This document shows, one piece after another, positions 11,918 to 64,000 of a stretch of DNA of 64,000 nucleotides (its first letter is position 1; every line of letters starts with the position of its first letter). This DNA is from Enoplolaimus lenunculus (lineage: Eukaryota). The notes beneath the pieces were generated by a model that was given only the letters and a program-made list of their open reading frames with translations, had not been told where the DNA came from and searched no databases. The stretch spans positions 434,001 through 498,000 of the forward strand of contig JASANG010000932.1 of NCBI GenBank assembly GCA_030248215.1. Reading direction: 5' to 3'. The position numbers were made by a program, and so were the translations under genes.

Positions 11918-12182
11918 CCCCTTCTCACATGAATATTTTCTATTTCCCCTGAGACCTACTTTTATGCTAGGATTCGAACTCCGGTGACGGGAGTGGGAGG
12001 CGTATACCATCACCACTCAGCTATATAGGAGCTTGATGCTCGAGCCCCAGAGGGCTCTCACATCTTGTGGTGATTTAGTACTATGTATACGTGTTGCAAT
12101 TGTTAAACACGGTGCGATATACTTTATTTAACGTATATATACGGCGATTAGTTGCCTATAGGCAACTCAATGTGAGAAGGGG
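11918..12182. mobile_element. piggyBac-like MITE (TTAA TSD, CCC termini) carrying a tRNA-like segment
   Basis: ttaa|ccccttctcacat..atgtgagaagggg|ttaa; the minus strand contains tagctgagtgg..ggagttcgaatcc (A/B-box-like). Confidence 0.65.
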
Positions 12183-13134
12183 TTAAGCTTGTGTTCATAA
12201 ATTTGGAACCTGCTCAATTGCTGTCAAACGTCTTAAACGGGACAAATCCTGCAATAAATTAAGTCGAGGCGAAGTTGATGTTTGCTTTGGAGATCAATCG
12301 ACGTGTGCATACGAAAAATGCGACAGACGTTGGACGGCGCTCTATTGGAAGTTGGTGAAACGCAGTTGTGGAATAGATAACATTTAGAATAATCTTGAAA
12401 TTACACAGAAGTTGCAGTTAATTCCGTCGTTTTGTGCAAAAAGCTTAAAAACTATGGTTTTTCGCATTATCTTCAATTGCTGGCCTTCAGTAATCAATGA
12501 TGTGTTGCCCTTTTTTTGTTTAACTGTTAAAGGCAGTATCGTTTCTTATTTATCGTTGTTGCAAATTAATTGAAGTTACTTTGTAAGAAATTTTCAATAC
12601 GGTTTGTGGTAGAACGTTGTCCAAAATACGTATGTGGGTCGTTAAAATAACAACATGGATTATAACATCAAAATAAAATAATTGACTAATATTGTGCTGA
12701 CATAAATAACTATATAGCTAGTTTAATAGTAACTAACAGAAGATATCCATGGTTGCTAGAATTATTGGACTGAATAACATTCTGTAAAAGATTTGAGGCA
12801 CTTCTGTTTCAATTTTGTATTTCATTGCTGATCCACGCTATTTAATTAATTTCCCTGCGTGCGTATAGAAGCACAATGAATTCACAAAATGTTGAAATGT
12901 AACTGTAAAAAAGTTTTTCATAAATTTGTCGTTCAGCGTTCATTTTAGCAAACTTTTTTGAACCCGTTTACTTATTAGAAAACTGAAATTTTGTGTTTTC
13001 TTTTAGAAAGGTCCGAATGTTTTAGACAGATTTGGTTAATGAGAAATTTACATACATATACCTAGTTAATTTTAAGTTTGTACATTGTGCTCTTTGTTTC
13101 TCATTTAGTTTACTTTGTATAAAAACAGTATTAA

Positions 13135-23608
<10,474 letters not shown>

Positions 23609-31200: not shown

Positions 31201-31782
31201 CACTTAAAGCTTATAAAGTACAAACACGCATATTTTGGCCCGCCGAGGTTCGTTTAATAATCAGTGAAATAATTCAAAAAGGTCTAGTTTAGGCTTGATT
31301 ATGCTAATATGGAAGTTAGCTAATTGCTATCTATCGCAATCACCGGTGTCAGAGGTTTGTAAACAATTTATTCAGATTTCTGGTTACCCAAAAACCATTT
31401 AGGACTGAAATTACACTGCTTGTAACCCAAATAATTTGTGAAATGCAGTAATATGTTCTAATTTAGGCTTAGCCAATTATGTAAATTAGTATGTAGCTAA
31501 TAGGCGACTTAAAAGTTTAAAATGCCAATGTGAGGTTAACGCTCCAGGATAATAAGCTTTGCAATAACAAAAGTTTATCAAAATCGGTCCAGTGGTTCCT
31601 GCGATTCTGTTCGGGCGGACGGACATCTACTTTTCAACCGCCGAATACAAATCATAACACGCTTCGCGAAACTCCGAGCTTCGCTTCGCTCAATGAAATA
31701 TGAAATATTCATACAGGAAATGGTTGATGTTTTAGGTTTTTCTGGCTTTACACTGGTTAAATTTGGTATGATATTTAGCAAA

Positions 31783-42000: not shown

Positions 42001-45000
42001 TACACCCACCAGACAACTGGCAGACCGTCCGAATGGCGTATACGTAGTCACATTATCGCACATACACATGCCACTTAACACAGAGTTTGTCCGAAGTGAC
42101 TCTGTTTACCCATTTTGCAGAGTCTGTCCGTTGTACTGCTTTTACAGCCAAGTGTGTTGACGTTTTACAGTAAGTTAGGCAGAATAATGTGAATAACCCA
42201 TAAGCTATTCATGTACCCAGTGCAAAAATGCATTAATTATCAATAGAGCTAAAGATCATTTTAATAAAAAATGTACTAGGTATATCACTAAAGTAATCAT
42301 GCCTATTTTAACTTAAAAATCTCGAGACCTTCAACATACGTGATAAAGCATTGTCTTAGCAGATGTCACTGTCAAATTTAATTTGTTTCACATTGTGCTA
42401 AATAGCAAAGTTTTCTACTCGTACTAAAGCTTTAAAAACTATTAATAAAAGTGGCAATAGATGTGTCACCCATTAACGAATTCCGTCGCAGATCCATGGA
42501 GATAGTGTATGCAGAAAGTCTACCAGTTTAATCTCAAGATAATATTAATTGTATATAGAGTATACATGAATTCGCCGTATTTGATTTTAATCACACGAAC
42601 AGACGTTTGCAACCATATTGCTTTATGCATTTTAGGGTTTGCTTTACGCAGATTGCATGAAGTTACCGTAATGTTTATTAGGAAGCAAATGCCAGTAGCA
42701 AAATTCACGATTTTTATGTAAACACTTCATGCGTACAGTGCAAAAATGCATTCAAATCAGTAGGACTAAGGATCATTGTAATATATAAACGTTTTATATT
42801 ACTTAAGTAGTCATGCTTATTTTAAAATTTCATCAATTTATTTCAGTGGCAAAACGAATTCCTTTGGTAATGGAAGGAGTCGGCACGTTTGAAGGTAAGG
42901 TCGATGAAACTGTTTTAACAATAATGAAAAAATAGTTATAAATGCTACATTAAGGCTGTTTAAGTAATTTCAGAAATCACTAGCTCAATAGTAACTACTG
43001 TTTAAAGTATTTTATTTCTGGATTAAGGTTCTGTCTAAAAAATAATCTGTAGTGGTTCTACTAAATTCCAAACTTCTATCGTTGCCAAAAATTACCTATT
43101 CAAATTCTTCGTGAGGGTCGCCGAATGAGAATGAAGAAGTATTTAAGGTATTGCGAGCTTTTTTTGCTGCATTTAAGAGCAGGTGGCTCAAAGTTTAGGA
43201 AAAAAGAACCTGCTACTTAAAAAACTGCGCGAAATTTTGAACTGACAGAATTTAACAACATTTATGATTTTAATTATTACAAATGTTATTTTCATTTGTA
43301 TTACAACAATTTGTTTCAGTTAAGAAACGACAAGAATGTAAGTTGCAGTTGTTTGCATTGTATTTTTCAAATCAGTTGTTTATATTCGTCACCCACATCC
43401 AGCGTACACAGACCAGACAACTGGCGGACCGTCTGAATGGCGTATACGTAGTCACATTATCGCACATACGCATGCCACTTAACACAGAGTTTGTCCGAAG
43501 TGACTCTGTTTACCAATTTTGCCGAGTCTGTCCGTTGTACTGCCTTTACAGCCAAGTGTGTTGACGTTTTAAAGTAAGTTAGGCAGAATAATGTGGATAA
43601 CCCATAAGCTATTCATGCACCCAGTGCAAAAATGCATTCATTATTAATAGAGCTAAAGATCATTTTAATAAAAAAATGTACTAGGTATATCACTAAACTA
43701 ATCATGTCTATTTTAACTTAAAAATATCGATACCTTCAACATACGTGATAAAGCATTGTTTTAGCAGAAGTCACTGTCAAATTTAATTTGTTTCACATTG
43801 TGCTAAATAGCAAAGTTTTCTACTCGTACTAAAGCTTTAAAAACTATTAATAAAAGTCGCAATAGATGTGTCACCCATTTACGAATTCCGTCGCAGATCC
43901 ATGGAGATAGTGTATGCAGAAAGTCTACCAGTTTAATCTCAAGATAATATTAATTGTATATAGAGTATACATGAATTCGCCGTATTTGATTTTAATCACA
44001 CGAACAGACGTTTGCAACCATATTGCTTTATACATTTTAGGGTTTGCTTTACGCAGATTGCAAGAGGTTACCCTAATGTTTATTAGGAAGCAAATGCCAG
44101 TAGCAAAATTCACGATTTTTAACTAAACACTTCATGCGTACAGTGCAAAAATGCATTCAAATCAGTAGGACTAAGGATCATTGTAATATATAAACGTTAC
44201 AGTGCAAAAATGCATTCAAATCAGTAGGACTAAGGATCATTGTAATATATAAACGTTTTATATTACTTAAGTAGTCATGCTTATTTTAAAATTTTATCAA
44301 TTTATTTCAGTGGAAAAACGAATTCCTTTGGTAATAGAAGGAGTCGGCACGTTTGAAGGTAAGGTCGATGAAACTGTTTTAACAATAATGAAAAAATAGT
44401 TATAAATGCTACATTAAGGCTGTTTAAGTAATTTCAGAAATCACTAGCTCAATAGTAACTACTGTTTAAAGTATTTTATTTCGGGATTAAGGTTCTGTCT
44501 AAAAATAATTTGTAGTGGTTCTACTAAATTCCAAACTTCTATCGTTGCCAAAAATTACCTATTCAATTCTTCGTGAGGGTCGCCGAATGAGAATGAAGAA
44601 GTATTTAAGGTATTGCGAGCTGTTTTTGCTGCATTTAAGAGCAGGTGGCTCAAAGTTTAGGAAAAAAGAACCTGCTACTTAAAAAACTGCGCGAAATTTT
44701 GAACTGACAGAATTTAACAACATTTATGATTTTAATTATTACAAATGTTATTTTCATTTGTATTACAACAATTTGTTTCAGTTAAGAAACGACAAGAATG
44801 TAAGTTGCAGTTGTTTGCATTGTATTTTTCAAATCAGTTGTTTATATTCGTCACCCACATCCAGCGTACACAGACCAGACAACTGGCAGACCGTCTGAAT
44901 GGCGTATACGAAGTCACATTATCGCACATACGCATGCCACTTAACACAGAGTTTGTCCGAAGTGACTCTGTTTACCAATTTTGCCGAGTCTGTCCGTTGT

Positions 45001-48000
45001 ACTGCCTTTACAGCCAAGTGTGTTGACGTTTTAAAGTAAGTTAGGCAGAATAATGTGGATAACCCATAAGCTATTCATGCACCCAGTGCAAAAATGCATT
45101 CATTATTAATAGAGCTAAAGATCATTTTAATAAAAAAATGTACTAGGTATATCACTAAACTAATCATGTCTATTTTAACTTAAAAATATCGATACCTTCA
45201 ACATACGTGATAAAGCATTGTTTTAGCAGAAGTCACTGTCAAATTTAATTTGTTTCACATTGTGCTAAATAGCAAAGTTTTCTACTCGTACTAAAGCTTT
45301 AAAAACTATTAATAAAAGTCGCAATAGATGTGTCACCCATTTACGAATTCCGTCGCAGATCCATGGAGATAGTGTATCCAGAAAGTCTACCAGTTTAATC
45401 TCAAGATAATATTAATTGTATATAGAGTATACATGAATTCGCCGTATTTGATTTTAATCATACGAACAGACGTTTGTAACCATATTGCTTTATGCATTTT
45501 AGGGTTTGCTTCGTAGATTGCATGAAGTTACCGTAATGTTTATTAGGAAGCAAATGCCAGTAGCAAAATTCACGATTTTTATGTAAACACTTCATGCGTA
45601 CAGTGCAAGAATGCATTCAAATCAGTAGGACTAAGGATCATTGTAATATATAAACGTTACAGTGCAAAAATGCATTCAAATCAGTAGGACTAAGGATCAT
45701 TGTAATATATAAACGTTTTATATTACTTAAGTAGTCATGCTTATTTTAAAATTTTATCAATTTATTTCAGTGGCAAAACGAATTCCTTTGGTAATAGAAG
45801 GAGTCGGCACGTTTGAAGGTAAGGTCGATGAAACTGTTTTAACAATAATGAAAAAATAGTTATAAATGCTACATTAAGGCTGTTTAAGTAATTTCAGAAA
45901 TCACTAGCTCAATAGTAACTACTGTTTAAAGTATTTTATTTCGGGATTAAGGTTCTGTCTAAAAATAATTTGTAGTGGTTCTACTAAATTCCAAACTTCT
46001 ATCGTTGCCAAAAATTACCTATTCAATTCTTCGTGAGGGTCGCCGAATGAGAATGAAGAAGTATTTAAGGTATTGCGAGCTGTTTTTGCTGCATTTAAGA
46101 GCAGGTGGCTCAAAGTTTAGGAAAAAAGAACCTGCTACTTAAAAAACTGCGCGAAATTTTGAACTGACAGAATTTAACAACATTTATGATTTTAATTATT
46201 ACAAATGTTATTTTCATTTGTATTACAACAATTTGTTTCAGTTAAGAAACGACAAGAATGTAAGTTGCAGTTGTTTGCATTGTATTTTTCAAATCAGTTG
46301 TTTATATTCGTCACCCACATCCAGCGTACACAGACCAGACAACTGGCAGACCGTCTGAATGGCGTATACGAAGTCACATTATCGCACATACGCATGCCAC
46401 TTAACACAGAGTTTGTCCGAAGTGACTCTGTTTACCAATTTTGCCGAGTCTGTCCGTTGTACTGCCTTTACAGCCAAGTGTGTTGACGTTTTAAAGTAAG
46501 TTAGGCAGAATAATGTGGATAACCCATAAGCTATTCATGCACCCAGTGCAAAAATGCATTCATTATTAATAGAGCTAAAGATCATTTTAATAAAAAAATG
46601 TACTAGGTATATCACTAAACTAATCATGTCTATTTTAACTTAAAAATATCGATACCTTCAACATACGTGATAAAGCATTGTTTTAGCAGAAGTCACTGTC
46701 AAATTTAATTTGTTTCACATTGTGCTAAATAGCAAAGTTTTCTACTCGTACTAAAGCTTTAAAAACTATTAATAAAAGTCGCAATAGATGTGTCACCCAT
46801 TAACGAATTCCGTCGCAGATCCATGGAGATAGTGTATGCAGAAAGTCTACCAGTTTAATCTCAAGATAATATTAATTGTATATAGAGTATACATGAATTC
46901 GCCGTATTTGATTTTAATCACACGAACAGACGTTTGCAACCATATTGCTTTATACATTTTAGGGTTTGCTTTACGCAGATTGCAAGAGGTTACCCTAATG
47001 TTTATTAGGAAGCAAATGCCAGTAGCAAAATTCACGATTTTTAACTAAACACTTCATGCGTACAGTGCAAAAATGGATTCAAATCAGTAGGACTAAGGAT
47101 CATTGTAATATATAAACGTTACAGTGCAAAAATGCATTCAAATCAGTAGGACTAAGGATCATTGTAATATATAAACGTTTTATATTACTTAAGTAGTCAT
47201 GCTTATTTTAAAATTTTATCAATTTATTTCAGTGGCAAAACGAATTCCTTTGGTAATAGAAGGAGTCGGCACGTTTGAAGGTAAGGTCGATGAAACTGTT
47301 TTAACAATAATGAAAAAATAGTTATAAATGCTACATTAAGGCTGTTTAAGTAATTTCAGAAATCACTAGCTCAATAGTAACTACTGTTTAAAGTATTTTA
47401 TTTCGGGATTAAGGTTCTGTCTAAAAATAATTTGTAGTGGTTCTACTAAATTCCAAACTTCTATCGTTGCCAAAAATTACCTATTCAAATTCTTCGTGAG
47501 GGTTGCCGAATGAGAATGAAGAAGTATTTAAGGTATTGCGAGCTGTTTTTGCGGCATTTAAGAACAGATGGCTCAAAGTTTAGGAAAAAAGAACCTGCTA
47601 CTTAAAAAATTGCGCGAAATTTTGAACTGACAGAATTTAACAACATTTATGATTTTTAATTATTACAAATGTTATTTTCATTTGTATTACAACAATTTGT
47701 TTCAGTTAAGAAACGACAAGAATGTAAGTTGTAGTTGTTTGCATTGTATTTTTCAAATCAGTTGTTTATATTCGTCACCCACATCCAGCGTACACAGACC
47801 AGACAACTGGCAGACCGTCTGAATGGCGTATACGTAGTCACATTATCGCACATACGCATGCCACTTAACACAGAGTTTGTCCGAAGTGACTCTGTTTACC
47901 AATTTTGCCGAGTCTGTCCGTTGTACTGCCTTTACAGCCAAGTGTGTTGACGTTTTACAGTAAGTTAGGCAGAATAATGTGGATAACCCATAAGCTATTT

Positions 48001-49804
48001 ATGCATCCAATGCAAAAATGCATTAATTATCAATAGAGCTAAAGATCATTTTAATAAAAATGTACTAGGTATATCACTAAAGTAATCATGCCTATTTTAA
48101 CTTAAAAATCTCGAGACCTTCAACATACGTGATAAAGCATTGTTTTAGCAGATGTCACTGTCAAACGTAATTTGTTTCACATTGGGCTAAATAGCAAAGT
48201 TTTCTGCTCGTACTAAAGCTTTAAAAACTATTAATAAAAGTCGCGATAGATGTGTCACCCATTTTTGAATTCGTCCCAGATCCATGGAGATAGTGTATGC
48301 AGAAAGTCTACCAGTTTAATCTCAAGATAATATTAATTGTATATAGAGTATACATGAATTCGCCGTATTTGATTTTAATCATACGAACAGACGTTTGTAA
48401 CCATATTGCTTTATGCATTTTAGGGTTTGCTTCGTAGATTGCATGAAGTTACCGTAATGTTTATTAGGAAGCAAATGCCAGTAGCAAAATTCACGATTTT
48501 TATGTAAACACTTCATGCGTACAGTGCAAGAATGCATTCATATCAGTAGGACTAAGGATCATTGTAATGTATAAACGTTTTATATTACTTAAGTAGTCAT
48601 GCTTGTTTTAAAATTTTATCAATTTATTTCAGTGGCAAAACGAATTCCTTTGGTAATGGAAGGAGTCGGCACGTTTGAAGGTAAGGTCGATGAAACTGTT
48701 TTAACAATAATGAAAAAATAGTTATAAATGCTACATTAAGGCTGTTTAAGTAATTTCAGAAATCACTAGCTCAACAGTAACTACTGTTTAAAGTATTTTA
48801 TTTCGGGATTAAGGTTCTTTATAAAAAATAATTTCAGCGGTTCTACTAAATTCCAAACTTCTATCGTTGCCGAAAAATGACCTATTCAAATTCTTTGTGA
48901 GAGTTGCCGAATGAGAATGAAGAAATGTTTAAGGTATTGCGAGCTATTTTTGCTGCATTTAAGAACAGATGGTCAAAGTTTAGGAAAAACGAACCTGCTA
49001 CTTAAAAAAGTGCGCGAAATGTTGAACTGACAGAATTTAACAACATTTATGATTTTTAATTATTACAAATGTTATTTTCATTCGTAGTACAACAATTTGT
49101 TTCAGTAAAGAAACGACAAGAAAGTAAGTTTTAGTCGTTTACATTGTAGTTTTCAAATCAGTTGTTTATATTCGTCACCCACATCCAGGGTACACCCACC
49201 AGACAACTGGCAGACCGTCTGAACGGCGTATACTTAGTCACATTATCGCACATACCCGTGCCACTTGTCAATATGTTATAAAAATGAAACCTGTTTTGGC
49301 CATAGTTTGTTACAAAGGACTCCGCTTATTGTATGCTACAGAGTTTGTCCGAAGGGACTATGTTTACCGATTTTGCAGAGTCTGTCCGTTTTACTGCCTT
49401 TACAGCCAAGTGTGTTGACGTTTTACAGGAAGTTAGCCAGAATAATGTGGATTACCCATAAGCTATTCATGCATCCAGTGCAAAAATGCATTAATTATCA
49501 ATAGAGCTAAAAATCATTGCTCGTACAAAACCTTTCAAAACTATTAATAAAAGTGGCAATAGATGTATCACCCATATATGAATTCCGTCGCAGATTCATG
49601 GAGATAGTGTATGCAGAAAGTCTACCAGTTTAATCTCAAGACGATATTAATTGTATATAGAGTATAGATGAATTCGCCGTATTTGGCTTTAATCTAACGA
49701 ACGTGTGGTTGTTAAGATATTGCATTAAAAATCAATAGGGCTACAGATCATTTTAATGTAAATACGTACTATTCACGGACTAATAGTTATTTTCAGCAAA
49801 ATGA
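39050..49804 (+). CDS. Predicted secreted multi-copy peptide precursor encoded by micro-exons (16 coding exons, 163 aa): signal peptide, then SPV-VKKRQE-[L(A/E)KR-IPLV(I/M)EGVGTFEV-KKRQE]x6-TK*
   Basis: Exons 39050-39083 (MNVAVRLLLIY) and 40186-40221 (VMLVAYGSGSPV). Then alternating 18-nt exons (40480-40497, 41916-41933, 43320-43337, 44782-44799, 46242-46259, 47706-47723, 49106-49123) and 48-nt exons (41443-41490, 42847-42894, 44311-44358, 45771-45818, 47233-47280, 48633-48680), and a last exon 49797-49804. Acceptors are tttcag/ttttag, donors are gtaag/gtgag, every intron is phase 1, and the 492-nt frame is open. Differences inside the VKKRQE codons are synonymous (GTG/GTT/GTA, CGG/CGA). No transcript evidence is available here. 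Confidence 0.8.
39220..40081. mobile_element. Merlin-like MITE subfamily A interrupted by a TGCGG-terminal element (intron 1 of the peptide gene)
   Basis: Perfect 8-bp TSD cagttttg at 39212-39219 and 40082-40089, GGCC termini, insert at 39323-39973. Confidence 0.8.
40340..49700 (+). repeat. Tandem array of ~1.40-1.46 kb exon+intron units (about 6.5 copies)
   Basis: Spacings between successive 18-nt exons are 1436, 1404, 1462, 1460, 1464 and 1400 bp. Intron sequence is near-identical between units. A ~58-bp internal duplication (acagtgcaaaaatgcattcaaatcagtagg...) occurs in units 3-5. Confidence 0.95.
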
Positions 49805-49970
49805 ACGTCATGAGATGAATGACAATTACTGTTCGACACAGTCCTTAAACTGCTACTAAAATCAAATTGAATTTTTATTGGACGTAGAAAATATAACAGT
49901 GTTTATTGCAGTATGATTGGCTGAATTTTTATTTATGTTCTAATCGTTGATTTAAGCTGTTATAATAAAC

Positions 49971-50103
49971 CTAAGCCTATGGCTAAGCCTAAGCCTAACC
50001 CTAAGCTTAAGCCTAAGCCTGAGCCTAAGCCTAAGCCTAAGCCTAAGCCTGAGCCTTAGCCTAAGCCTAAGCCTAAGTCTAAGCCTAAGCCTAAGCCTAA
50101 GCC
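49971..50103 (-). repeat. Interstitial (GCCTAA)n telomere-type array
   Basis: About 22 units, between the peptide gene 3' end and the CYP 3' end. Confidence 0.9.
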
Positions 50104-50697: not shown

Positions 50698-50884
50698 GGC
50701 CAATGTTACTGTTAGGGGCGTGACAATAGATTAAGCGTATTTCTAAGCCTACGCCTAAGCCTAAGTGTTGCAAAAATGTGTGCCTAAGCGTATTAGCCTA
50801 AGTAAGAAGTTGTAATCTAGAATCTAAACCTACTCTTTTATAGACCCACCAGAAACCTTTACGCCCCTTAAAGTAACATGGGCC
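50698..50884. mobile_element. Merlin-like MITE subfamily B
   Basis: TIRs ggccaatgttactgttaggggcgt / acgccccttaaagtaacatgggcc; TSD aagaatat/aacaatat. Other B copies at ~2360-2505, 19015-19670, 38205-38376, 54570-54755. Confidence 0.8.
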
Positions 50885-51673
50885 AACAATATTATCACAC
50901 AGCTTTGGTGCTTGCCATCAATTAACATCTGGGTGTCATACGAACATGGAGACCATTTGCAGGACGCAATGTCAACTCAGAGACTGCGTCCACAGAATCC
51001 ATTGGCTCAACTGAAGCGATGTGAAAGTTTTTGACCAGCATTGAAACAGTTGTCAACATTTCGAGGATTGCAAATTTTTGACCTAAAAATAAAATGGAAA
51101 CAATTCTATAAAGTTTACTGAAGGATTGGTAGCATTTAAACTTTGACTCATTTTATTTCAAACAAAAATTACAAAAACTAAAATGACATCTGGTTGTGAC
51201 AGGATTTTTACGTTTATTCCGGTATTGCGAAATCGAAATTTTTCACACATTTGCGCATAAAAGTTGTGCCGTTCGTAACTTGGCGGATTAGTGTGGCGGA
51301 AGGCCCGGGTCCGACATGGCTAACAGTCGTTTTTAATAGCAATTATTTTATACAGCACAGCTTAAAGTGTAACACAGGGCCGGCGTTAGAATAAGGATAG
51401 TCGGCCGCCCCAAAACAGGTCAAATAGGCGTTCGCAATAAAATGCTTCACAGCTCTATATAAACTTTGTGATTCGGGAAAATTTTTTTTTCATGGCTTCT
51501 TATCCATTGAAACATGCCGTCGTTTTTTGGTTGGTGGGAGGCCCCTTTTTGGTGGAAGGCCCGGCGCCCGAGGTCCCTGCGCCCCCTTTAATCCGGCGCT
51601 GTTCGAAAAACAACAATAGTTCAAAAAGTTTTCTAATGAAATAAATCTTGATAAAATGTAAAGATTATAGGTA

Positions 51674-52099
51674 CTGTAGTGACCCGAATAAGAGGGGGGA
51701 CTGATATTTATTTGGCCTCTCGAGAGGGTAACCCCATTGTTATTCGGTTACGGACTGTTATTTATTTTAACCCAAGCTCCGCCGCCCTTCGTCGCTGAAA
51801 TATATCCGGTACTGCAATTATCCGTTGAATTAAACGTTTATTTGTCTTGTGTCAATAGCTTGAGCGATAATACAAGGTTACACTTAGGAATGTGCTTTCA
51901 AACTTTAAGTACGCTTTAAAGGTTCGACCTCAAATTATTTGGTCCTGGATTTATTTATGCGCTACAATTAGGATTAATGGATATTTATGGACTCTAATTA
52001 GGGTTTAGGGACTCTATGCGCTTACGGACTCTTATTAGGGATACGGAATCCAATTGATTCGGACTCAAAATGGGGACCCTCTTATTCGGGTCAATACAG
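51674..52099. mobile_element. Tc1/mariner/pogo-type MITE (TA TSD); mirror at 63573-64000
   Basis: ta|ctgtagtgacccgaataagagggg..ccctcttattcgggtcaatacag|ta. Confidence 0.7.
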
Positions 52100-54962
52100 T
52101 AAAACTTGTTAATTCAGCGTGATTTTAAATCATTTATTTTCGTTTATCTTCAAATCCAAAGCACAGTTCATACCTCAATTGTGTTGGCAGAAAAATAAAA
52201 CATTTTTGAAATTTTGAAATTACGCTGCAATATCTGTTTTCCGTTTCTGTTATTTTTACTATCTGTTTTAGAATTCTTAATCGACAAAACGCTATTACAA
52301 GTTGAGGGTTTAATATTAAGAATCTGCGGCATTATATAGGACTTTATGGCCCATTTACGGATTTTCTGAGGCGGATTAGGAGTCCTACTTAGCTCTATGT
52401 TTCTCTTATGCAGAAATTGTGGCCAGAATTTGCGTATTTCCCCTGTGACAATTGCGGTGTTTGCACGGCATCATAAAGGTTAATGTTTTACATAGACGAG
52501 TACTTCACTAAACCGAATATATACTTCGTTCAATGACATCATACGTCATCAAAATATAATTCTGAGTCGAAGCCTAAGCCTAAGCCTAAACGAAACCTAA
52601 TGGCGTACGAGCAAATGTCTGGTCTATGATATTATCGGTTATAATGCGAATCTCGGTCGATAGTCCTGGCGACAAAATGTCATTTATGCCGTTTTCGAAT
52701 TCATTTGTGAACCAATTTCTGATTGGCTAAGAAAATACCATTCAAAGGACAAACCGCCCCCGCCCCCTCAGGCCCGTAATCTGTAATTGGCTGCGCTGGT
52801 GATGTTCTTCTCGTTCTTACCGATACAATTTCGTGGGCCAGCTGCAAATGGAACGAATGAGTACGGATGTCGGCTCATATTTTCAGGATCGTCGTGAGCG
52901 AATCTGTCAGGTATAAATTTGTCAGGATATTCGTAGTAGTCTGGGTCACGATGGATCGACCACATCGATATCATTGCTGTACATCCGGCCGGTATGACGT
53001 AATCAGCTGAAATCCGTTTTAAATTTTCACTCATTCTCACTTGAATAGTTTCGGGCCATTTAAAAATCAGTGGCGGAACGTTTTTCTGTAGGACTGCAAT
53101 AGAGTAAAGCTTTAGCTTTAGACCATTTTTTTGCTTGGCTTAAGCTTAGGCTTAGGAATATGTTCATTCCTACGCTTAGGCTTAGACTTAGGGTTAGGCT
53201 TAGGAATACGCTTAATGCGCTTTGACGACTCTCAAAGTAACATTGGCCAAAAATATAGACCAACTCATTTTGGTGGCGTGTGGTAACGCGCGGCTGCGTG
53301 CGTCGTCATGCGGAAACGTGCGGCAAAATTTAAAAAATTTACCTGCTGCGGCGTCCGGCAGTGCCCCGCGGACATTGCGCAACCTAAAGAGTGAATGATA
53401 AATGATTGATATTATTTTGTTACCTGCAGTAAACGGTTCAGTCACTTTTCGACCCACATACGGTACAGGTGGCACATATCTCATCGATTCCATAATAAAA
53501 GTTCGCAGGACGCGAAGCGATTTAAGCTTCGACGGATTCAACCAATCACATTCGTCGCCTGTAAACAGCAGCTGAGTTGTGTAATACCCAATCAAAAAGT
53601 TTAAGAGTTGGTTGATTATAATACTTTTGGATAGAAAATGTGAGCATTTACACAAGCTGGGGTAAAACCGTTCCGAGGAACGGAGAGCAAAATTAGATCC
53701 AAAGCTTATATTTGGAAAGTTTTCGCAATCCTACAAACCCCTATAATCACAGCTGTCATTGTAAGTGTGAATGGTTAAAAATAGGACTTTTTTCACACGT
53801 TTCTGATTGGGTAATTGAAAACCTCTGAGTTAACAGTCGAAGTCGAAAGTTTTCTAACTAAAATATTGACTTTTCAAGTTTCAGTTGCGTCTTTGAAACC
53901 CAGCGAATAGCGCGTTTCTGAAATATTGTTCAAGTATTTACTTAACTTACGTACACTTTTAGAAACAATAAATTGATTAAACAAATGCATAGCAAATACA
54001 TATAAGCATAAAATTGTACTTAAGCAGGCTTTCAGAAGCCCAGCCATTGTTTATGGATCATCCTATTTATATAATCTGCTCGGATGTACAAAACAGAACT
54101 GTAACCTAAGAGTTGGTACAACGCAAACAGCGTGCTCTATCACAACAACGTGTCCTGAGTCTGTAAATCGGATACCGGAACAGTAATCACACATTTTTTA
54201 CAAAGTCCAGAAATCGAAACAAAATACAAACATACACATATATCAAAACATGAAGTCGTACTTAAGTAGGCTTTCAGAAACCTAGCCATTGTTTTTAGTT
54301 TTATGAAATTAGCAGGCTGATTCCTATGCTTTATGATTTAAGTTAAATCGGTTAAATGTTTTCCATTGAAATGTAAATTTTAACATTTTTTCTCATTTGC
54401 GTGTCTTGTTTCAACTGCCGTCACTTACTTGGAATACTTATAAATACTTTGATGCTACTTGAGAGCACGGTGTAACCGTTATTTCGACCACTATCCGTTT
54501 CCGTTTCCGTTTCCGTTTCCGTGATTTTTACTATCCGTTTACACCCTGCTTGAAAGTATTACAGTTATTGGTCCATGTTACTTTAAAGGGCGTGCCGTTT
54601 TTGCAAGCATGCAATAGAGAACGTTAAATCTTTTTAGAGTAACGGTTATGCTTAGGCTTAGGCTTGGTTTTAGTCTTGTCCTTGCATACGGAAGGTTAGC
54701 CTTAGACTGAGATATTTTCAAACGCTTACTGTTTACGCCCCTAAAAGTAACAATTGTAAGCATTGCTGTAGAAGGTCGTTTTATTAATAAACGTACTCAG
54801 AGTTTCTGAAATTTCTCGATAAATATGCTCCTGATACTCGGGAAAATGACCAAGGAAAAATATTGTCCAGCAAATTGCAGTTGCCGACGTATCTGTAGCC
54901 TGAAACATTTGAAACAAAATTGACAAACTTTTATTTTTGCGTTGCGGCTCTTTGAACATTTT

Positions 54963-55077
54963 CAAACAAACAGACAAACAAACAAACAAACAAACAAACA
55001 AACAAACAAACAAACAAACAAACAAACAAACAAACAAACAAACAAACAAACAAACAAACAAACAAACAAACAAACAA
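54963..55077. repeat. (AAAC)n microsatellite; shorter mirror (GTTT)n at ~60665-60723
   Basis: Read directly; the copy number differs about two-fold between arms. Confidence 0.95.
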
Positions 55078-55673
55078 TGCTATTAAGCTTCGTAAGCGCA
55101 AGTTCTACAAGACGTGAGACCTCCCTCGTGCTCGAGCATCTGCAGACCCTTAAAGTTGAGAGTGGTAAATGATGAGAACGTCTCTCACACCATGAAACTA
55201 CGATTCGAATCTTGGCTTGAAATTTAATTTGCATACAGTGCAAAAAAATGGTGAGCCAAATTGACTCTCTCGAAAATAGGCTTTTCCTGGCTACTCAAAC
55301 TGAGTCAAGTTCGACTCCACCAGAGTCAAATTCGATACACTGAGTCGCACGTTTGACTTTGGCGGAGTCGAATTTGACTCAGATTGTGTAGTCAGGAAAA
55401 GCCTATTTCCGAGAGAGTCGATTTGACCCCATTTTTTACGGTGTACATTTTAGTATAAATATTCATGTGAGAAAAGGTTCACAGTTGTCTTACTCCTTGA
55501 GTAAATGTGTCAACTTCTTCACGAATGTCACATTTGTTCATTTCATGCTTTGAAGCGAGTTCGAGTAGAATATCGAGGAATGTACATCGTTTTCGACCAT
55601 CAACACTGCGGTATGGACACTGAATTCGTGCTGTGATAATCTGCAAACAACAATAAATATTCATAAATTTCAT

Positions 55674-56444
55674 CGCCAATGTTAATTCCTAAGCCAAAGC
55701 CTAAACCTAAGCCTAAGCGTTGCAAAAGCGTATTCCTAAGCCTAAGCCTAAGCGTTGCAAAAGCGTATTCCTCAGTTAAGCCTAAACCTAAGCGTTGCAA
55801 AAGCGTATTCCTAAGCCTAAGCCTAAGCGTTGCAAAAGCGTATTCCTCAGTTAAGCCTAAACCTAAGCGTTGCAAAAGCGTATTCCTCAGTTAAGCCTAA
55901 ACCTAAGCGTTGCAAAAGCGTATTCCTAAGCCTAAGCCTAAGCGTTGCAAAAGCGTATTCCTCAGTTAAGCCTAAACCTAAGCGTTGCAAAAGCGTATTC
56001 CTCAGTTAAGCCTAAACCTAAGCGTTGCAAAAGCGTATTCCTAAGCCTAAGCCTAAGCGTTGCAAAAGCGTATTCCTCAGTTAAGCCTAAACCTAAGCGT
56101 TGCAAAAGCGTATTCCTCAGTTAAGCCTAAACCTAAGCGTTGCAAAAGCGTATTCCTAAGCCTAAGCCTAAGCGTTGCAAAAGCGTATTCCTCAGTTAAG
56201 CCTAAACCTAAGCGTTGCAAAAGCGTATTCCTAAGCCTAAGCCTAAGCGTTGCAAAAGCGTATTCCTCAGTTAAGCCTAAACCTAAGCGTTGCTAAAGCG
56301 TATTCCTAAGCCTAAGCCTAAGCGTTGCAAAAGCGTATTCCTAAGCCTAAGCCTAAGCCTAAGCAAAAAATGTAGTATAGAATGTAAGCCTACTCTTTTA
56401 TTGACTCACCACAAACCGGGACAGTCCTAATAGTAACATGGGCC
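55674..56444. mobile_element. Merlin-like MITE B with an internal 35/40-bp minisatellite expansion (mirror at 59287-60067)
   Basis: Perfect 8-bp TSD aatttcat. The interior is an array of gcgttgcaaaagcgtattcctaagcctaagcctaa (35 bp) and gcgttgcaaaagcgtattcctcagttaagcctaaacctaa (40 bp). Confidence 0.85.
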
Positions 56445-57754
56445 AATTTCATTTTAATATCTTAAAATTTCTTGAGATATATTTCATTCCAATTTAAAAG
56501 TGTATTAGGCTCTTGTATACTTACCCGTCATAAAAAAAGCTTAGACGTAAACTTAGGCAACGGGTTCGTAGACTGAGACTAAGGTTTAAACAAAAACATT
56601 AGGCTTAGGCTTAATGAATTTTTTCTAAAAATCGGAACAGTATTATAAGCTTATTCTTACACGTAAGCCTAAGCCAAAGCCTAAGCGTAAGAATGAGTTT
56701 ATTCCTAAGCATAAAACCCTAAGCCTAAGCGTAACCCAACCAAAAAATAGTCTAAAGCTTAAGCTTACTCTATAGCAGTCTCACAGAAAAACATTCCACC
56801 CCTGATCTTTACGTGGGCCAGCCCAACGAACCTGTGAATAAAAGTGAACAAGAGCCTTTTATGCAAATTTAAAATGTCTTTTAACTTTTAGTTTTTGTTG
56901 AAAATTTTCTCACATTTGAAATTTTTTTAAAAATCAAAAACTTTAAGCTGATTTTGGCTAAAGTTGCTGAATTCACTTCTAATCGCTCAGAACTTGAGCA
57001 AACTAACTTTTTCGGTAAACTCGTGTGCCGTTTTGATGGCTCGTGTTAAGGTAAAACCGTAGCCAAAGCAGTAAAACAACGGTCGAAACCACAGCCACGG
57101 AGAGCGTTCTTTGCGAACCATAAGCTCTGTGATTCTGAAATAAAAATAGGTAGTAAAATAGCGGAAAACGGATATTGAAGTATAAAAGTTTCAAAGATGT
57201 ATTATTCGGTCACCATAATTGCGGCATGTAGATATCAGTTGGCTTTCTAAACCTTTAAAGGAAAAATAACGGATGCACCAAAATTCTTTTATTATTTTGG
57301 ACGAATTTCGTTGCTAATGTTTCATACAGAACAATTAAAGCATATTTGTAATGAAATACTGTGATGTACACATGGGATTTATAACTAATTTTAAGCATAA
57401 AAATAGGGGAATTTCCGGTATTTTTATAACGGAAAAAAACGAACACCGATCTTTACCGGAAACGGAAACAGATATCCGGTTAATAGATGTATATATACTA
57501 AATAGCTTATGTATAGAACAGGGCCGGATCGTTTTCCGAAGGGGCTGTACCTGTCATACAGTCAGCTTGCGATTTAGACAAAATTTTTTGCTTCGGCTTA
57601 GGCTTACGCTTAAGTTTAGGCTTAGGAATATGATCATTCTTTCGGTTTTGCCAGGATTCATAGCAAAACCAAAGGTTTTTTAGCAACAGGAAAATACAAT
57701 TCCAGTATTCTCGTCATTACTTAAATCACTGCTTATAAAATTGCAATAATCAAT

Positions 57755-57975
57755 GGCCAATGTTACTTTTAGGGGCGTAACAGTAGATTAAGCGTACTCC
57801 TAAGCCAAAGCCTAAGCGTTGCAAAAATGCGTTCTTAAGCCTAAGCCTAAGCGTTGTAAAAAATGTGTTCCTAAACCTAAGCCTAAGCCTAAGCAAAAAA
57901 CGGTAATCTAGAATCTAAACCTACTGTTTTATAGACCTACTAGAAACCTGGACGCCCCTTAAAGTAACATTGGCC
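57755..57975. mobile_element. Merlin-like MITE (subfamily B) at the palindrome hinge
   Basis: 24-bp TIRs ggccaatgttacttttaggggcgt / acgccccttaaagtaacattggcc (1 mismatch) around internal GCCTAA arrays. The flanks are inverted (taatcaat/attgatta) rather than forming a direct TSD. Confidence 0.85.
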
Positions 57976-58595
57976 ATTGATTATTGCAATTTTATAAGCA
58001 GTGATTTAAGTAATGACGAGAATACTGGAATTGTATTTTCCTGTTGCTAAAAAACCTTTGGTTTTGCTATGAATCCTGGCAAAACCGAAAGAATGATCAT
58101 ATTCCTAAGCCTAAACTTAAGCGTAAGCCTAAGCCGAAGCAAAAAATTTTGTCTAAATCGCAAGCTGACTGTATGACAGGTACAGCCCCTTCGGAAAACG
58201 ATCCGGCCCTGTTCTATACATAAGCTATTTAGTATATATACATCTATTAACCGGATATCTGTTTCCGTTTCCGGTAAAGATCGGTGTTCGTTTTTTTCCG
58301 TTATAAAAATACCGGAAATTCCCCTATTTTTATGCTTAAAATTAGTTATAAATCCCATGTATACATCACAGTATTTCATTACAAATATGCTTTAATTGTT
58401 CTGTATGAAACATTAGCAACGAAATTCGTCCAAAATAATAAAAGAATTTTGGTGCATCCGTTATTTTTTCTTTAAAGGTTTAGAAAGCCAACTGATATCT
58501 ACATGCCGCAATTATGGTGACCGAATAATACATCTTTGAAACTTTTATACTTCAATATCCGTTTTCCGCTATTTTACTACCTATTTTTATTTCAG

Positions 58596-61500
58596 AATCA
58601 CAGAGCTTATGGTTCGCAAAGAACGCTCTCCGTGGCTGTGGTTTCGACCGTTGTTTTACTGCTTTGGCTACGGTTTTACCTTAACACGAGCCATCAAAAC
58701 GGCACACGAGTTTACCGAAAAAGTTAGTTTGCTCAAGTTCTGAGCGATTAGAAGTGAATTCAGCAACTTTAGCCAAAATCAGCTTAAAGTTTTTGATTTT
58801 TAAAAAAATTTCAAATGTGAGAAAATTTTCAACAAAAACTAAAAGTTAAAAGACATTTTAAATTTGCATAAAAGGCTCTTGTTCACTTTTATTCACAGGT
58901 TCGTTGGGCTGGCCCACGTAAAGATCAGGGGTGGAATGTTTTTCTGTGAGACTGCTATAGAGTAAGCTTAAGCTTTAGACTATTTTTTGGTTGGGTTACG
59001 CTTAGGCTTAGGGTTTTATGCTTAGGAATAAACTCATTCTTACGCTTAGGCTTTGGCTTAGGCTTACGTGTAAGAATAAGCTTATAATACTGTTCCGATT
59101 TTTAGAAAAAATTCATTAAGCCTAAGCCTAATGTTTTTGTTTAAACCTTAGTCTCAGTCTACGAACCCGTTGCCTAAGTTTACGTCTAAGCTTTTTTTTA
59201 TGACGGGTAAGTATACAAGAGCCTAATGCACTTTTAAATTGGAATGAAATATATCTCAAGAAATTTTAAGATATTAAAATGAAATTGGCCCATGTTACTA
59301 TTTGGACTGTCCCGGTTTGTGGTGAGTCAATAAAAGAGTAGGCTTACATTCTATACTACATTTTTTTGCTTAGGCTTAGGCTTAGGAATACGCTTTTGCA
59401 ACGCTTAGGCTTAGGCTTAGGAATACGCTTTTGCAACGCTTAGGTTTAGGCTTAACTGAGGAATACGCTTTTGCAACGCTTAGGCTTAGGCTTAGGAATA
59501 CGCTTTTGCAACGCTTAGGTTTAGGCTTAACTGAGGAATACGCTTTTGCAACGCTTAGGCTTAGGCTTAGGAATACGCTTTTGCAACGCTTAGGCTTAGG
59601 CTTAGGAATACGCTTTTGCAACGCTTAGGCTTAGGCTTAGGAATACGCTTTTGCAACGCTTAGGCTTAGGCTTAGGAATACGCTTTTGCAACGCTTAGGT
59701 TTAGGCTTAACTGAGGAATACGCTTTTGCAACGCTTAGGTTTAGGCTTAACTGAGGAATACGCTTTTGCAACGCTTAGGCTTAGGCTTAGGAATACGCTT
59801 TTGCTACGCTTAGGCTTAGGCTTAGAATACGCTTTCCAACCAACAAACCCAACCCTTAGGCTTAGGAATACGCTTTTGCAACGCTTAGGCTTAGGCTTAG
59901 GAATACGCTTTTGCAACGCTTAGGCTTAGGCTTAGGAATACGCTTTTGCAACGCTTAGGCTTAGGCTTAGGAATACGCTTTTGCAACGCTTAGGCTTAGG
60001 CTTAGGAATACGCTTTTGCAACGCTTAGGCTTAGGTTTAGGCTTTGGCTTAGGAATTAACATTGGCGATGAAATTTATGAATATTTATTGTTGTTTGCAG
60101 ATTATCACAGCACGAGTTCAGTGTCCATACCGCAGTGTTGATGGTCGAAAACGATGTACATTCCTCGATATTCTACTCGAACTCGCTTCAAAGCATCAAA
60201 TGAACAAATGTGACATTCGTGAAGAAGTTGACACATTTACTCAAGGAGTAAGACAACTGTCAACATTTTCTCACATGAATATTTATACTAAAATGTACTC
60301 CGTAAAAAATGAGGTCAAATCGACTCTCTCGGAAATAGGCTTTTCCTGACTACACAATCTGAGTCAAATTCGACTCCGCCAAAGTCAAACGTGCGACTCA
60401 GTGTATCGAATTTGACTCTGGTGGAGTCGAACTTGACTCAGGTTGTGTAGCCAGGAAAAGCCTATTTTCGAGATAGTCAATTTGGCTCACCATTTTTTTT
60501 GCACTGTATGCAAATTAAATTTCAAGCCAAGATTCGAATCGTAGTTTCATGGTGTGAGAGACGTTCTCATCATTTACCACTCTCAACTTTAAGGGTCTGC
60601 TGATGCTCGAGCACGAGGGAGGTCTCACGTCTTGTAGAACTTGCGCTTACGAAGCTTAATAGCATTGTTTGTTTGTTTGTTTGTTTGTTTGTTTGTTTGT
60701 TTGTTTGTTTGTCTGTTTGTTTGAAAATGTTCAAAGAGCCGCAACGCAAAAATTAAAGTTTGTCAATTTTGTTTCAAATGTTTCAGGCTACAGATACGTC
60801 GGCAACTGCAATTTGCTGGACAATATTTTTCCTTGGTCATTTCCCCGAGTATCAAGAGCATATTTATCGAGAAATTTCAGAAACTCTGAGTACGTTTATT
60901 AATAAAACGACCTTCTACAGCAATGCTTACAATTGTTACTTTTAGGGTCGTAAACAGTAAGCGTTTGAAAATATCTCAGTCTAAGGCTAACCTTCCGTAT
61001 ACAAGGACAAGACTAAAACCAAGCCTAAGCCTAAGCATAACCGTTACTCTAAAAAGATTTAACGTTCTCTATTGCATACTTGCAAAAACGGCACGCCCTT
61101 TAAAGTAACATGGACCAATAACTGTAATACTTTCAAGCAGGGTGCAAACGGATAGTAAAAATCACGGAAACGGAAACGGAAACGGATAGTGGTCGAAATA
61201 ACGGTTACACCGTGCTCTGAAGTAGCATCAAAGTATTTATAAGTATTCCAAGTAAGTGACGGCAGTTGAAACAAGACACGCAAATGAGAAAAAATGTTAA
61301 AATTAACATTTCAATGGAAAACATTTAAACGATTTAACTTGAATCATAAAGCATAGGAATCAGCCTGCTAATTTCATAAAACTAAAAACAATGGCTAGGT
61401 TTCTGAAAGCCTACTTAAGTACGACTTCATGTTTTGATATATGTGTATGTTTGTATTTTGTTTCGATTTCTGGACTTTGTAAAAAATGTGTGATTACTGT

Positions 61501-62860
61501 TCCGGTATCCGATTTACAGACTCAGGACACGTTGTTGTGATAGAGCACGCTGTTTGCGTTGTACCAACTCTTAGGTTACAGTTCTGTTTTGTACATCCGA
61601 GCAGATTATATAAATAGGATGATCCATAAACAATGGCTGGGCTTCTGAAAGCCTGCTTAAGTACAATTTTATGCTTATAAGTATTTGCTATGCATTTGTT
61701 TAATCAATTTATTGTTTCTAAAAGTGTACGTAAGTTAAGTAAATACTTGAACAATATTTCAGAAACGCGCTATTCGCTGGGTTTCAAAGACGCAACTGAA
61801 ACTTGAAAAGTCAATATTTTAGTTAGAAAACTTTCGACTTCGACTGTTAACTCAGAGGTTTTCAATTACCCAATCAGAAACGTGTGAAAAAAAAGTCCTA
61901 TTTTTAACCATTCACACTTACAATGACAGCTGTGATTATAGGGGTTTGTAGGATTGCGAAAACTTTCCAAATATAAGCTTTGGATCTAATTTTGCTCTCC
62001 GTTCCTCGGAACGCTTTTACCCCAGCTTGTGTAAATGCTCACATTTTCTACCCAAAAGTATTATAATCAACCAACTCTTAAACTTTTTGATTGGGTATTA
62101 CACAACTCAGCTGCTGTTTACAGGCGACGAATGTGATTGGTTGAATCCGTCGAAGCTTAAATCGCTTCGCGTCCTGCGAACTTTTATCATGGAATCGATG
62201 AGATATGTGCCACCTGTACCGTATGTGGGTCGAAAAGTGACTGAACCGTTTACTGCAGGTAACAAAATAATATCAATCATTTATCATTCACTCTTTAGGT
62301 TGCGCAATGTCCGCGGGGCGCCGCCGGACGCAGCAGCAGGTAAATTTTTTAAATTTTGCCGCACGTTTCCGCATGACGACGCACGCGGCCGGCCACCAAA
62401 ATGAGTTGGTCTATATTTTTGGCCAATGTTACTTTGAGAGTCGTCAAAGCGCATTAAGCGTATGCCTAAGCCTAACCCTAAGTCTAAGCCTAAGCGTAGG
62501 AATGAACATATTCCTAAGCCTAAGCCTAAGCCTAAGCTTAAGCCAAGCAAAAAAATGGTCTAAAGCTAAAGCTTTACTCTATTGCAGTCCTACAGAAAAA
62601 CGTTCCGCCACTGATTTTTAAATGGCCCGAAACTATTCAAGTGAGAATGAGTGAAAATTTAAAACGGATTTCAGCTGATTACGTCATACCGGCCGGATGT
62701 ACAGCAATGATATCGATGTGGTCGATCCATCGTGACCAAGACTACTACGAATATCCTGACAAATTTATACCTGACAGATTCGCTCACGACGATCCTGAAA
62801 ATATGAGCCGACATCCGTACTCATTCGTTCCATTTGCAGCTGGCCCACGAAATTGTATCG
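58596..62860 (+). pseudogene. CYP4-clan cytochrome P450, mirror copy in the right palindrome arm (5'-truncated; last exon expected beyond the window)
   Basis: Exons 58596-58722, 60101-60247, 60787-60889, 62124-62258, 62675-62860. Differs from the left copy at I/V (TARIQ/TARVQ), E/Q (KHEM/KHQM) and P/Q (RDPD/RDQD). Confidence 0.85.
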
Positions 62861-64000
62861 GTAAGAACGAGAAGAACATCACCAGCGCAGCCAATTACAG
62901 ATTACGGGCCTGAGGGGGCGGGGGCGGTTTGTCCTTTGAATGGTATTTTCTTAGCCAATCAGAAATTGGTTCACAAATGAATTCGAAAACGGCATAAATG
63001 ACATTTTGTCGCCAGGACTATCGACCGAGATTCGCATTATAACCGATAATATCATAGACCAGACATTTGCTCGTACGCCATTAGGTTCTGTTAGGCTTAG
63101 GCTTAGGCTTCGACTCAGAATTATATTTTGATGACGTATGATGTCATTGAACGAAGTATATATTCGGTTTAGTGAAGTACTCGTCTATGTAAAACATTAA
63201 CCTTTATGATGCCGTGCAAACACCGCAATTGTCACAGGGGAAATACGCAAATTCTGGCCACAATTTCTGCATAAGAGAAACAAAGATCTAATAATGACTC
63301 CTAATCCGCCTCAGAAAATCCGTAAATGGGCCATAAAGTCCTATATAATGCCGCAGATTGTTAATATTAAACCCTCAACTTGTAATAGCGTTTTGTCGAT
63401 TAAGAATTCTAAAACAGATAGTAAAAATAACAGAAACGGAAAACAGATATTGCAGCGTAATTTCAAAAATGTTTTATTTTTCTGCCAACACAATTGAGGT
63501 ATGAACTGTGCTTTGGATTTGAAGATAAACGAAAATAAATGATTTAAAATCACGCTGAATTAACAAGTTTTACTGTATTGACCCGAATAAGAGGGGTCCC
63601 CATTTTGAGTCCGAATCAATTGGATTCCGTATCCCTAATAAGAGTCCGTAAGCGCATAGAGTCCCTAAACCCTAATTAGAGTCCATAAATATCCATTAAT
63701 CCTAATTGTAGCGCATAAATAAATCCAGGACCAAATAATTTGAGGTCGAACCTTTAAAGCGTACTTAAAATTTGAAAGCACATTCCTAAGTGTAACCTTG
63801 TATAGCTAGAGCTATTGTGACACAAGACAAATAAACGTTTAATTCAAGGGATAATTGCAGTACCGGATATATTCAGTGACGAAGGGGGGCGGAGCTTGGG
63901 TTAAAATAAATAACAGTCCGTAACCGAATAACAATGGGGGTACCCCTTTCGAGAGGCCAAATAAATATCAGTCCCCCCTCTTATTTTCGGGTCACTACAG

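Follow-up and report, generated by a model that had tools for sequence, protein, structure and literature searches.

Is the palindrome of more than 12 kb at the right end of the 64-kb window (the whole stretch of DNA analysed here) a heritable structure seeded by the transposable element on which it turns, or was it made in the course of amplification and assembly? We confirm the palindrome as an assembled sequence, identify the TIR pair of one MITE as its hinge, and argue that it is probably an assembly artefact, in which a fold-back chimera joins two haplotypes of one single-copy CYP locus.

Geometry of the palindrome

Self-BLAST sets the left arm (version A; 51674–57778, minus strand, read outward from the hinge) against the right arm (version B; 57952–64000, plus strand) in inverted orientation around a non-palindromic spacer of 173 bp (57779–57951), which element analysis identifies as the MITE interior. 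The symmetry is carried by two inverted matches, 55019–57778 against 60723–57952 (96.5 %) and 51674–55021 against 64000–60665 (97.4 %), for which chance is excluded (BLAST E = 0.0). The span of 12,327 bp has an outer limit set only by the window end; that of the left arm is merely the mirror of this end, and the locus continues leftwards. The flanks of the hinge MITE match at 10 of 10 positions in inverted and at 0 of 8 in direct orientation, and the order across the junction is reversed flank, one whole MITE, flank. An earlier note had described just this, namely a palindrome of over 12 kb hinged exactly on the TIRs, with inverted flanks, one of them a reversed copy that had taken the place of the original, and the arm comparison bears it out, with the TIR pair setting the hinge. 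This geometry exactly matches the product of TIR fold-back priming, whether in the cell or in the tube.

At its right end the window closes with a second TIR element with TA flanks (63573–64000, plus strand; left copy 51674–52099), the terminal base of which is the window's last base, a coincidence expected in about 0.5 % of cases by chance (71 termini, reckoned post hoc). The last full 250-bp bin holds 13 arm differences against a mean of about 3.4, and some right-arm differences are error-like, comprising a garbled 35-nt satellite unit present in this arm only and homopolymer changes at the tip. The window end on a TIR terminus and the differences piled up there resemble a contig tip, a sign favouring an artefact.

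The hinge element and its family

The hinge MITE (57755–57975, plus strand; 221 bp), characterized by sequence comparison and folding, has Merlin-like ends and an interior of degenerate TTAGGC units, a repeat described as canonical (PMC10760449) and the ground for taking the source as likely a nematode, and it folds on its own TIRs at −37.2 kcal/mol (z −5.0). From the arm comparison, the left TIR (57755–57778, plus strand) and the right TIR (57952–57975, minus strand) are each 24 bp long, perfectly complementary over the outer 15 bp, with a single mismatch at position 16, where each keeps its own base, as does the sister copy at 50698–50884. TSDs were checked in three independent sister elements with both ends located. 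The earlier statement that sister copies have direct 8-bp TSDs holds for two of these, 50698–50884 (plus strand; 7/8) and 55674–56444 (plus strand; 8/8; mirror 59287–60067), the interior of the latter having grown into a 35/40-bp satellite, and fails for the third, 19015–19670, the flanks of which are degenerate (5/8).

Non-autonomous Merlin elements are defined by 5'-GG termini, a TIR of at least 24 bp and an 8- or 9-bp TSD, and their autonomous partner has the same TIRs and an IS1595-type DDE transposase (PMC8101967). The present family resembles them in its terminal 5'-GG, its 24-bp TIR and the 8-bp TSDs of two of the three sister copies, the hinge copy itself being without a TSD, and differs in an interior that has TTAGGC units and is able to expand into satellite. 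The family is highly abundant, with 27–36 contigs per short-read run that join unrelated flanks to the TIR at position 57755, and for this reason the locus's own hinge junctions are not separable in short-read contigs. Among the listed contig pieces no read or contig bridges the hinge, and in JGI metagenome contigs the flank–TIR junction was found at 0 loci.

Divergence and gene content of the arms

Overall the arms differ by 62 SNPs and 21 indels. They are perfect over 401 bp at the hinge (15 bp of TIR and 386 bp outward), and the first SNPs outward lie at 57369/58361 and then 57261/58469, in agreement with the earlier description of some 400 identical bp followed by SNPs. The proximal zone (56540–57754, mirror 57976–59191) is near-identical, with two SNPs and no indels in 1231 bp, outer TIR included (change-point P 0.006, clusters merged); in the distal arm SNP divergence is 1.23 % (50 in 4063 bp). 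Short-read contigs were available from two samples, S1 (runs X1 and X2) and S2 (run X3). The distal divergence is about 10 times the S1 baseline heterozygosity (six SNPs over 6335 bp, corrected to 0.13 %, in the one baseline region tested) and four times the difference between S2 and the window (11 differences in 3833 bp). The near-identity over the 1.2 kb next to the hinge belongs to the DNA itself: the covered 761 and 711 bp show 0 and 1 non-arm variants, where a concealed divergent haplotype would have contributed about six. Of the 12 non-satellite SNPs that could be polarised, nine have the derived state in the right arm (P 0.15), and word shares of 0.91, 0.82 and 0.78, set against 24 % left-specific words, do not tell alleles and paralogs apart.

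Both versions of the arms occur in the short-read contigs, and since they do, most arm differences are not errors: contigs contain the right-arm state at three of four testable sites (56503, the insertion at 56531 and 57261; not seen at 57369), and the left-arm state likewise at three of the four among the listed contig pieces. Additionally, one X2 contig (depth 32) lacks a single base at 57154 that both arms have, and an X3 contig begins at 57370, one base past the arm SNP at 57369, a hint that both versions are present in S2 as well.

Depth was taken as that of the listed arm contigs relative to the baseline region 12001–18900; contig depth is not copy number, and the measure is a weak one. 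By this poor measure the arms together reach 1.37 of baseline in X1, 0.86 in X2 and 1.01 in S1 pooled, and 3.3 in the uneven X3 of S2, where a homozygous palindrome predicts 2.0 and a palindrome plus an intact third copy 3.0. The earlier note had held that half-depth arms would speak against a real palindrome; S1 leans to that outcome (pooled 1.0 against 2.0 expected) and S2 does not (3.3). Depth in X3 ranges from 0 to 18 within 6.9 kb, as expected of amplified DNA, though this is a hint only. The TIR-adjacent flank (about 57679–57731 and 57997–58020) has almost no contig cover in the three runs, an observation from filtered records that we count neither way.

Five open 3' exons of a CYP4-like gene lie in both arms, those of the left arm on the minus strand at 57005–57136 (closest to the hinge, from about residue 200–250 onward of full-length homologues; mirror 58594–58725; bounds approximate), about 55503–55630 (reaching into the I helix; mirror about 60100–60247), about 54800–54900 (I helix; mirror about 60788–60890), about 53425–53568 (K helix; mirror about 62115–62260) and 52819–53010 (haem-binding cysteine motif; PF00067, E 2.5e-21; mirror about 62669–62862). 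The mirror of the last exon (50928–51086, minus strand) would fall past the window end, and the 5' half of the gene is absent from the 64-kb window. Between the arms these exons show three synonymous and three non-synonymous differences and no indels, a pattern that tilts towards divergence between functional copies (P 0.17 and 0.11, neither significant). Used as a query for longer proteins, the haem-binding exon found seven matches, the best 60 % identical, and hence no full-length product of this gene. Separately, the best protein matches of an NCX exon are 26–33 % identical, too distant to narrow the taxon.

Origin of the palindrome

Starting from three direct observations (the geometry, the TIR hairpin and both arm versions in short-read contigs), we suggest that a fold-back chimera was primed, likely on the MITE TIR stem, during DNA amplification, and that the assembler turned back at the MITE and then appended the other haplotype of this single-copy CYP locus in reverse orientation. 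A displaced single strand would pair its TIRs (15 perfect bp, or 24 with one mismatch, around a 173-nt loop), an unpaired tail, if any, would be trimmed, and the polymerase would copy the flank back. The TIR being a preferred site, the junction would be common to several reads and hence accepted by the assembler, and consensus and polishing may have separated the haplotypes, A into the left arm and B into the right. The CYP 5' exons and the rest of the true continuation would then lie on another contig or be lost, and the right arm is probably a contig tip of about 6 kb. Two haplotypes mis-joined through an amplification chimera had been raised before as compatible with the arms, and we take this as the best explanation, a probable one.

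MDA is known to generate such molecules. Its chimeras are 85 % inversions, primed on 2–21 complementary nt (PMC1855051), favour overlaps of 12–13 nt lying 80–280 nt apart (PMC5372508), and account for 8.8–30.9 % of reads in single-worm MDA (PMC10450198); as inverted duplications they have found their way into an assembly (PMC6218980). The hinge is likewise an inverted junction whose priming stretch would be short and nearby, with 15 perfect bp (24 with one mismatch) separated by 173–191 nt, so that both the 15–24-bp stem and the distance are at or just above the reported ranges; by this analogy the match of stem and loop size to known MDA hotspots favours an artefact. It differs in that a single chimeric molecule has identical arms, whereas the two real versions here would need haplotype sorting by the assembler, and in that amplification is known there and is itself something we infer for the source DNA. 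The open 3' CYP exons in both arms with no 5' half in the window, and the variant at 57154 that is in neither arm, also favour an artefact, and the pooled S1 depth of 1.01 does so weakly, as do, short of significance, the lean in the exon differences and the excess of derived SNPs on the right arm. Counting against it are the roughly tenfold excess of distal divergence over S1 heterozygosity (one baseline), the real 1.2-kb near-identity, which requires a haplotype-block boundary coinciding with the hinge, and the depth of 3.3 in X3 and 1.37 in X1 alone, together with the possible presence of both versions in S2.

Most of these observations are what an unlikely alternative would draw on, that A and B are real head-to-head CYP paralogs with the same MITE in the same intron, and that the middle, with both 5' halves, was lost at the TIRs; in a head-to-head layout the TIRs form direct repeats. 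The loss could have come about by an assembly or amplification jump or by a recent deletion in the animal, with the central identity arising from gene conversion, and the junction sequence would be the same as that produced by fold-back. The tenfold divergence with a true identity gradient towards the hinge, the open exons in both arms with their mild purifying lean, the X3 depth and the possible branch at 57369 in S2 all fit such paralogs; the pooled S1 depth of 1.01 and 0.86 in X2 do not, since twofold depth is predicted, and the window end on a TIR terminus and the noisy right tip are left unexplained.

Quite doubtful, in our estimation, is a real heritable palindrome made in vivo by TIR-primed fold-back synthesis, in which the DNA broke at one TIR or immediately outside it (a transposase cutting at a single end, for instance, would leave the 3' end flush with the TIR edge) and resection, TIR pairing and fold-back synthesis followed, the arms later drifting apart while conversion kept the centre alike. 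The junction is the exact predicted product, and an old palindrome could show both the identity gradient and the excess divergence. Moreover, a 15-bp stem was the fold-back hotspot in yeast and large loops were possible in wild-type cells (PMC7467729), and the Tetrahymena rDNA palindrome arises from a 42-bp inverted repeat beside a break (cited in PMC3734650). Such an origin, however, requires either that all sequence past the MITE was lost, predicting 2x depth, or that a second switch produced three copies, predicting 3x, and the depth of about 1x in S1 agrees with neither. Throughout their divergence the arms would both have been pseudogenes lacking the 5' part, yet the five shared exons have neither stop nor indel; further, the yeast fold-backs all required a second rearrangement (PMC7467729), and none is visible here. 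It is improbable that high-copy Merlin-like MITEs acted as germ-line fold-back primers, giving a heritable multi-kb palindrome with the MITE as its whole spacer, and similarly doubtful that germ-line arms persisted to 1.2 % divergence while conversion kept 1.2 kb at the hinge alike. The earlier proposal of MITE seeding stands for the TIR pair having set the hinge and not for MITEs as palindrome seeds within the genome; its interpretation as a whole is partly supported.

A pure one-molecule fold-back read, with every arm difference a sequencing error, would suit the garbled satellite unit and the tip homopolymers and is largely refuted by the right-arm and left-arm states each recurring in contigs at three of four testable sites, which makes it highly improbable; the earlier note had likewise argued against a simple read fold-back. 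Origins by transposition were also considered and rejected on mechanistic grounds: in hybrid-element or sister-chromatid transposition an element end becomes linked to a fresh target site, whereas here it meets the precise mirror image of its own flank, and after a hAT-type flank hairpin the palindrome centre would contain no element.

Comparison with known palindromes

Sex-chromosome-type palindromes, which are kept alike through arm-to-arm conversion, share with this locus long inverted arms and a short spacer. They contain whole genes at double depth (gorilla Y, PMC6218980), whereas here the gene is without its 5' half and the S1 depth is not doubled. Fold-back palindromes from short inverted repeats, for which we compared Tetrahymena rDNA (42-bp repeat), yeast inversions and engineered mammalian amplicons (PMC3734650, PMC7467729), retain the short repeat at the centre with its interior as sole spacer and have one flank replaced by the reverse of the other, and the hinge has this same organization. 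They are known on real molecules, begin with arms that are identical and owe their stability to an added telomere or a further rearrangement, whereas the present palindrome is known from assembled sequence, its right arm runs to the window end, and its seed is a transposon TIR. Among titles and abstract openings, with the subscription literature mostly outside this scope, we found no direct precedent for MITE TIRs as the hinge of a natural large palindrome, nor one for palindromic contigs.

Implications

If the palindrome is an artefact, then the TIR pairs of MITE-rich small-animal genomes share the geometry of amplification-chimera hotspots, and false palindromes can recur at one site and survive assembly. 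They would look old because two haplotypes end on opposite arms, and they would also split genes in half. If, on the other hand, the palindrome is real, it would represent a natural animal germ-line case of transposon TIRs seeding a large palindrome via the Tetrahymena/yeast route, with the centre-biased homogenisation still visible in its arms, and the many sister copies would allow a test across the genome.

Results

In the assembled sequence, self-BLAST pairs 51674–57778 (left arm) in inverted orientation with 64000–57952 (right arm) at 96.5–97.4% identity, which together with the TIR positions bears out the earlier note, where a palindrome hinged on the TIRs of a MITE had been described. 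What separates the arms is the 173-bp interior of this hinge MITE (57755–57975; 221 bp, 24-bp TIRs), and the order is reversed flank, one whole MITE, then flank. From TIR position 15 outward the arms match perfectly over 401 bp (about 400 bp had been claimed), the first SNPs met from the hinge being 57369 and 57261; in total they differ by 62 SNPs and 21 indels. As also claimed, the hinge flanks are inverted (10/10 matches, against 0/8 in direct orientation), whereas direct 8-bp TSDs occur in two of three sister elements of the family (7/8 and 8/8; 5/8 in the third).

Judged by its sequence features, the family (GG termini, 24-bp TIRs, 8-bp TSDs) appears to fit the definition of Merlin (PMC8101967). 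It is extremely abundant, with a summed contig depth over the element of at least 10^5 in most bins versus ~13–33 for single-copy sequence. One member (55674–56444, mirrored at 59287–60067) has its interior expanded to a TTAGGC-based 35/40-bp satellite with higher-order periods of 75/115/190 bp, its TIRs and 8-bp TSD intact; this points to a way in which members of the family may give rise to satellites. Interstitial (TTAGGC)n of 23–26 units lies at 49966–50103, 4082–4237 and 7375–7531, several within or adjoining MITE fragments; such units suggest a nematode (PMC10760449), but protein searches found no close relative. Five copies were seen of a second, fully self-complementary MITE family of ~200 bp (8909–9124, 9342–9573, 10682–10882, 29882–30071 and 55243–55437).

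As a single strand, the hinge MITE folds via its TIRs (−37.2 kcal/mol, z −5.0). At position 16 the two hinge TIRs still differ, each with its own base, and the sister element at 50698–50884 shows this too; the strand switch is therefore placed at the end of a TIR or within its outer 15 bp. The structure is what TIR-primed fold-back is expected to yield, by a cell or phi29 polymerase alike: a 3' end lying at one TIR would pair with the other and then copy the flank back.

The hinge lies inside an intron of a CYP4-like P450 gene, five exons of which run outward in both arms, the sixth and last being at 50928–51086. These span homologues from ~residue 200–250 on; in tblastn searches of the window, four homologues, three of them full-length, picked up no CYP 5' exons. 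Between arms the five shared exons show three synonymous and three non-synonymous changes (by eye), no indels and no stops, which leans towards copies diverged under selection, neither test being significant (P 0.17, 0.11). Compared with the usual CYP4 form, the I-helix motif is atypical in both arms (55503–55520 and 54880–54900; mirror 60225–60247 and 60788–60810), including the acidic residue position that links haem in many CYP4s, and the enzyme may be atypical.

Divergence is uneven: the 1231 bp nearest the hinge hold two SNPs and no indels, the distal 4063 non-satellite bp 50 SNPs (1.23%) and 14 indels (change-point P 0.006, clustered differences merged beforehand). Over the baseline (12001–18900), sample S1 (runs X1 and X2) shows six SNPs and three indels in 6335 bp, ~0.13% SNPs allowing for dropped alleles, and S2 (run X3) 11 SNPs in 3833 bp. 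Relative to this one baseline, the proximal arms are at an equal level and the distal arms ~10-fold higher. A 36-bp deletion (14781–14816) and a 23-bp insertion (18201) segregate in S1; the deletion, common to S1 and S2, touches the start of an open frame in the kinase gene.

Three public DNA runs contain the locus, in each case only as short-read contigs; they stem from a single study and represent two samples. As the assembly may derive from one of them, they are not independent support. None of the listed pieces aligned to 56460–58020 bridges the hinge. Of four testable sites, listed contigs carry the right-arm state at three and the left-arm state likewise at three, with both versions in S1; both are therefore real DNA, and the earlier argument against a simple read fold-back stands. 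A 1-bp deletion at 57154 in X2 is absent from both arms, and a SNP at 56926 is private to X3. Across 761 and 711 bp of the proximal zone, the listed contigs hold 0 and 1 variants, respectively, that belong to neither arm, where ~6 would be expected were a divergent haplotype hidden, and near-identity at the hinge therefore belongs to the versions, not to consensus calling. Arm-to-baseline depth is 1.37 (X1), 0.86 (X2), 1.01 (X1 and X2 pooled) and 3.3 (X3, whose baseline ranges 0–18), from 7, 4 and 4 listed records taken as single-locus pieces with repeat-derived pieces excluded; we give these ratios modest weight because contig depth is no copy-number measure.

A further TIR element with TA flanks, whose left copy is 51674–52099, has a right copy that ends exactly with the window, its terminal base being the last one; with 71 termini in the window, the chance of this coincidence is ~0.5%, reckoned post hoc. 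In the last full 250-bp bin the arms show 13 differences against a mean of ~3.4, one of them a right-arm homopolymer gain that breaks the element's TIR, and a garbled 35-nt satellite unit (59825–59859) is confined to the right arm. These signs fit a thinly covered contig tip.

Elsewhere, 40340–49518 is a tandem array of about six non-coding units of 1.37–1.47 kb (longest open frame 96 codons; inner units 98–99% alike, outer 93–96%; a nested 59-bp duplication in three). Three genes lie at 279–8843, 14777–23608 and 31540–34177: respectively, an Na/Ca exchanger, a kinase that by eye resembles AMPK alpha, and a RING/Sina-finger gene with weak Pfam matches, presumably like RNF41. The exchanger has a Calx-beta match (E 2.5e-35) and one very long exon with just 26–33% identity to its best matches.

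Discussion

We consider it probable, though well short of assured, that the palindrome is an amplification chimera in which fold-back joined two haplotypes of one CYP locus in reverse, amplification of the source DNA being itself presumed. This would account for the hinge geometry, for a gene cut in half whose exons are open in both arms, for a depth in S1 equal to that of a single locus, for the variant found in neither arm and for the contig-tip signs. Heterozygosity is often blocky, and the tenfold excess divergence and hinge-centred identity are covered only if one haplotype block happens to give way to another 1.2 kb from the hinge. Inversions primed on 2–21 complementary bases make up most MDA chimeras (PMC1855051); these chimeras favour 12–13-nt overlaps 80–280 nt apart (PMC5372508), a geometry to which the hinge MITE comes close but not quite, are common in single-worm and tardigrade libraries (PMC10450198, PMC13265396) and were carried into one assembly as inverted duplications (PMC6218980).

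Two real head-to-head CYP paralogs, their middle dropped at the TIRs, would explain both the excess divergence and the identity centred on the hinge, but predict double depth, and we regard them as unlikely. We doubt still more a real palindrome folded back in vivo, for which the same junction is expected and which is known in Tetrahymena rDNA (PMC3734650) and yeast (PMC7467729), but which requires either three copies or the loss of part of a chromosome, as well as exons long dead yet still intact. Were it true, the mechanism would be a known one on a new kind of hinge, as the literature searched gave no direct precedent in which MITE TIRs form the hinge of a natural palindrome. On the best-supported reading, the chromosome carries no such palindrome, and what produced it in the assembly is a process already known.
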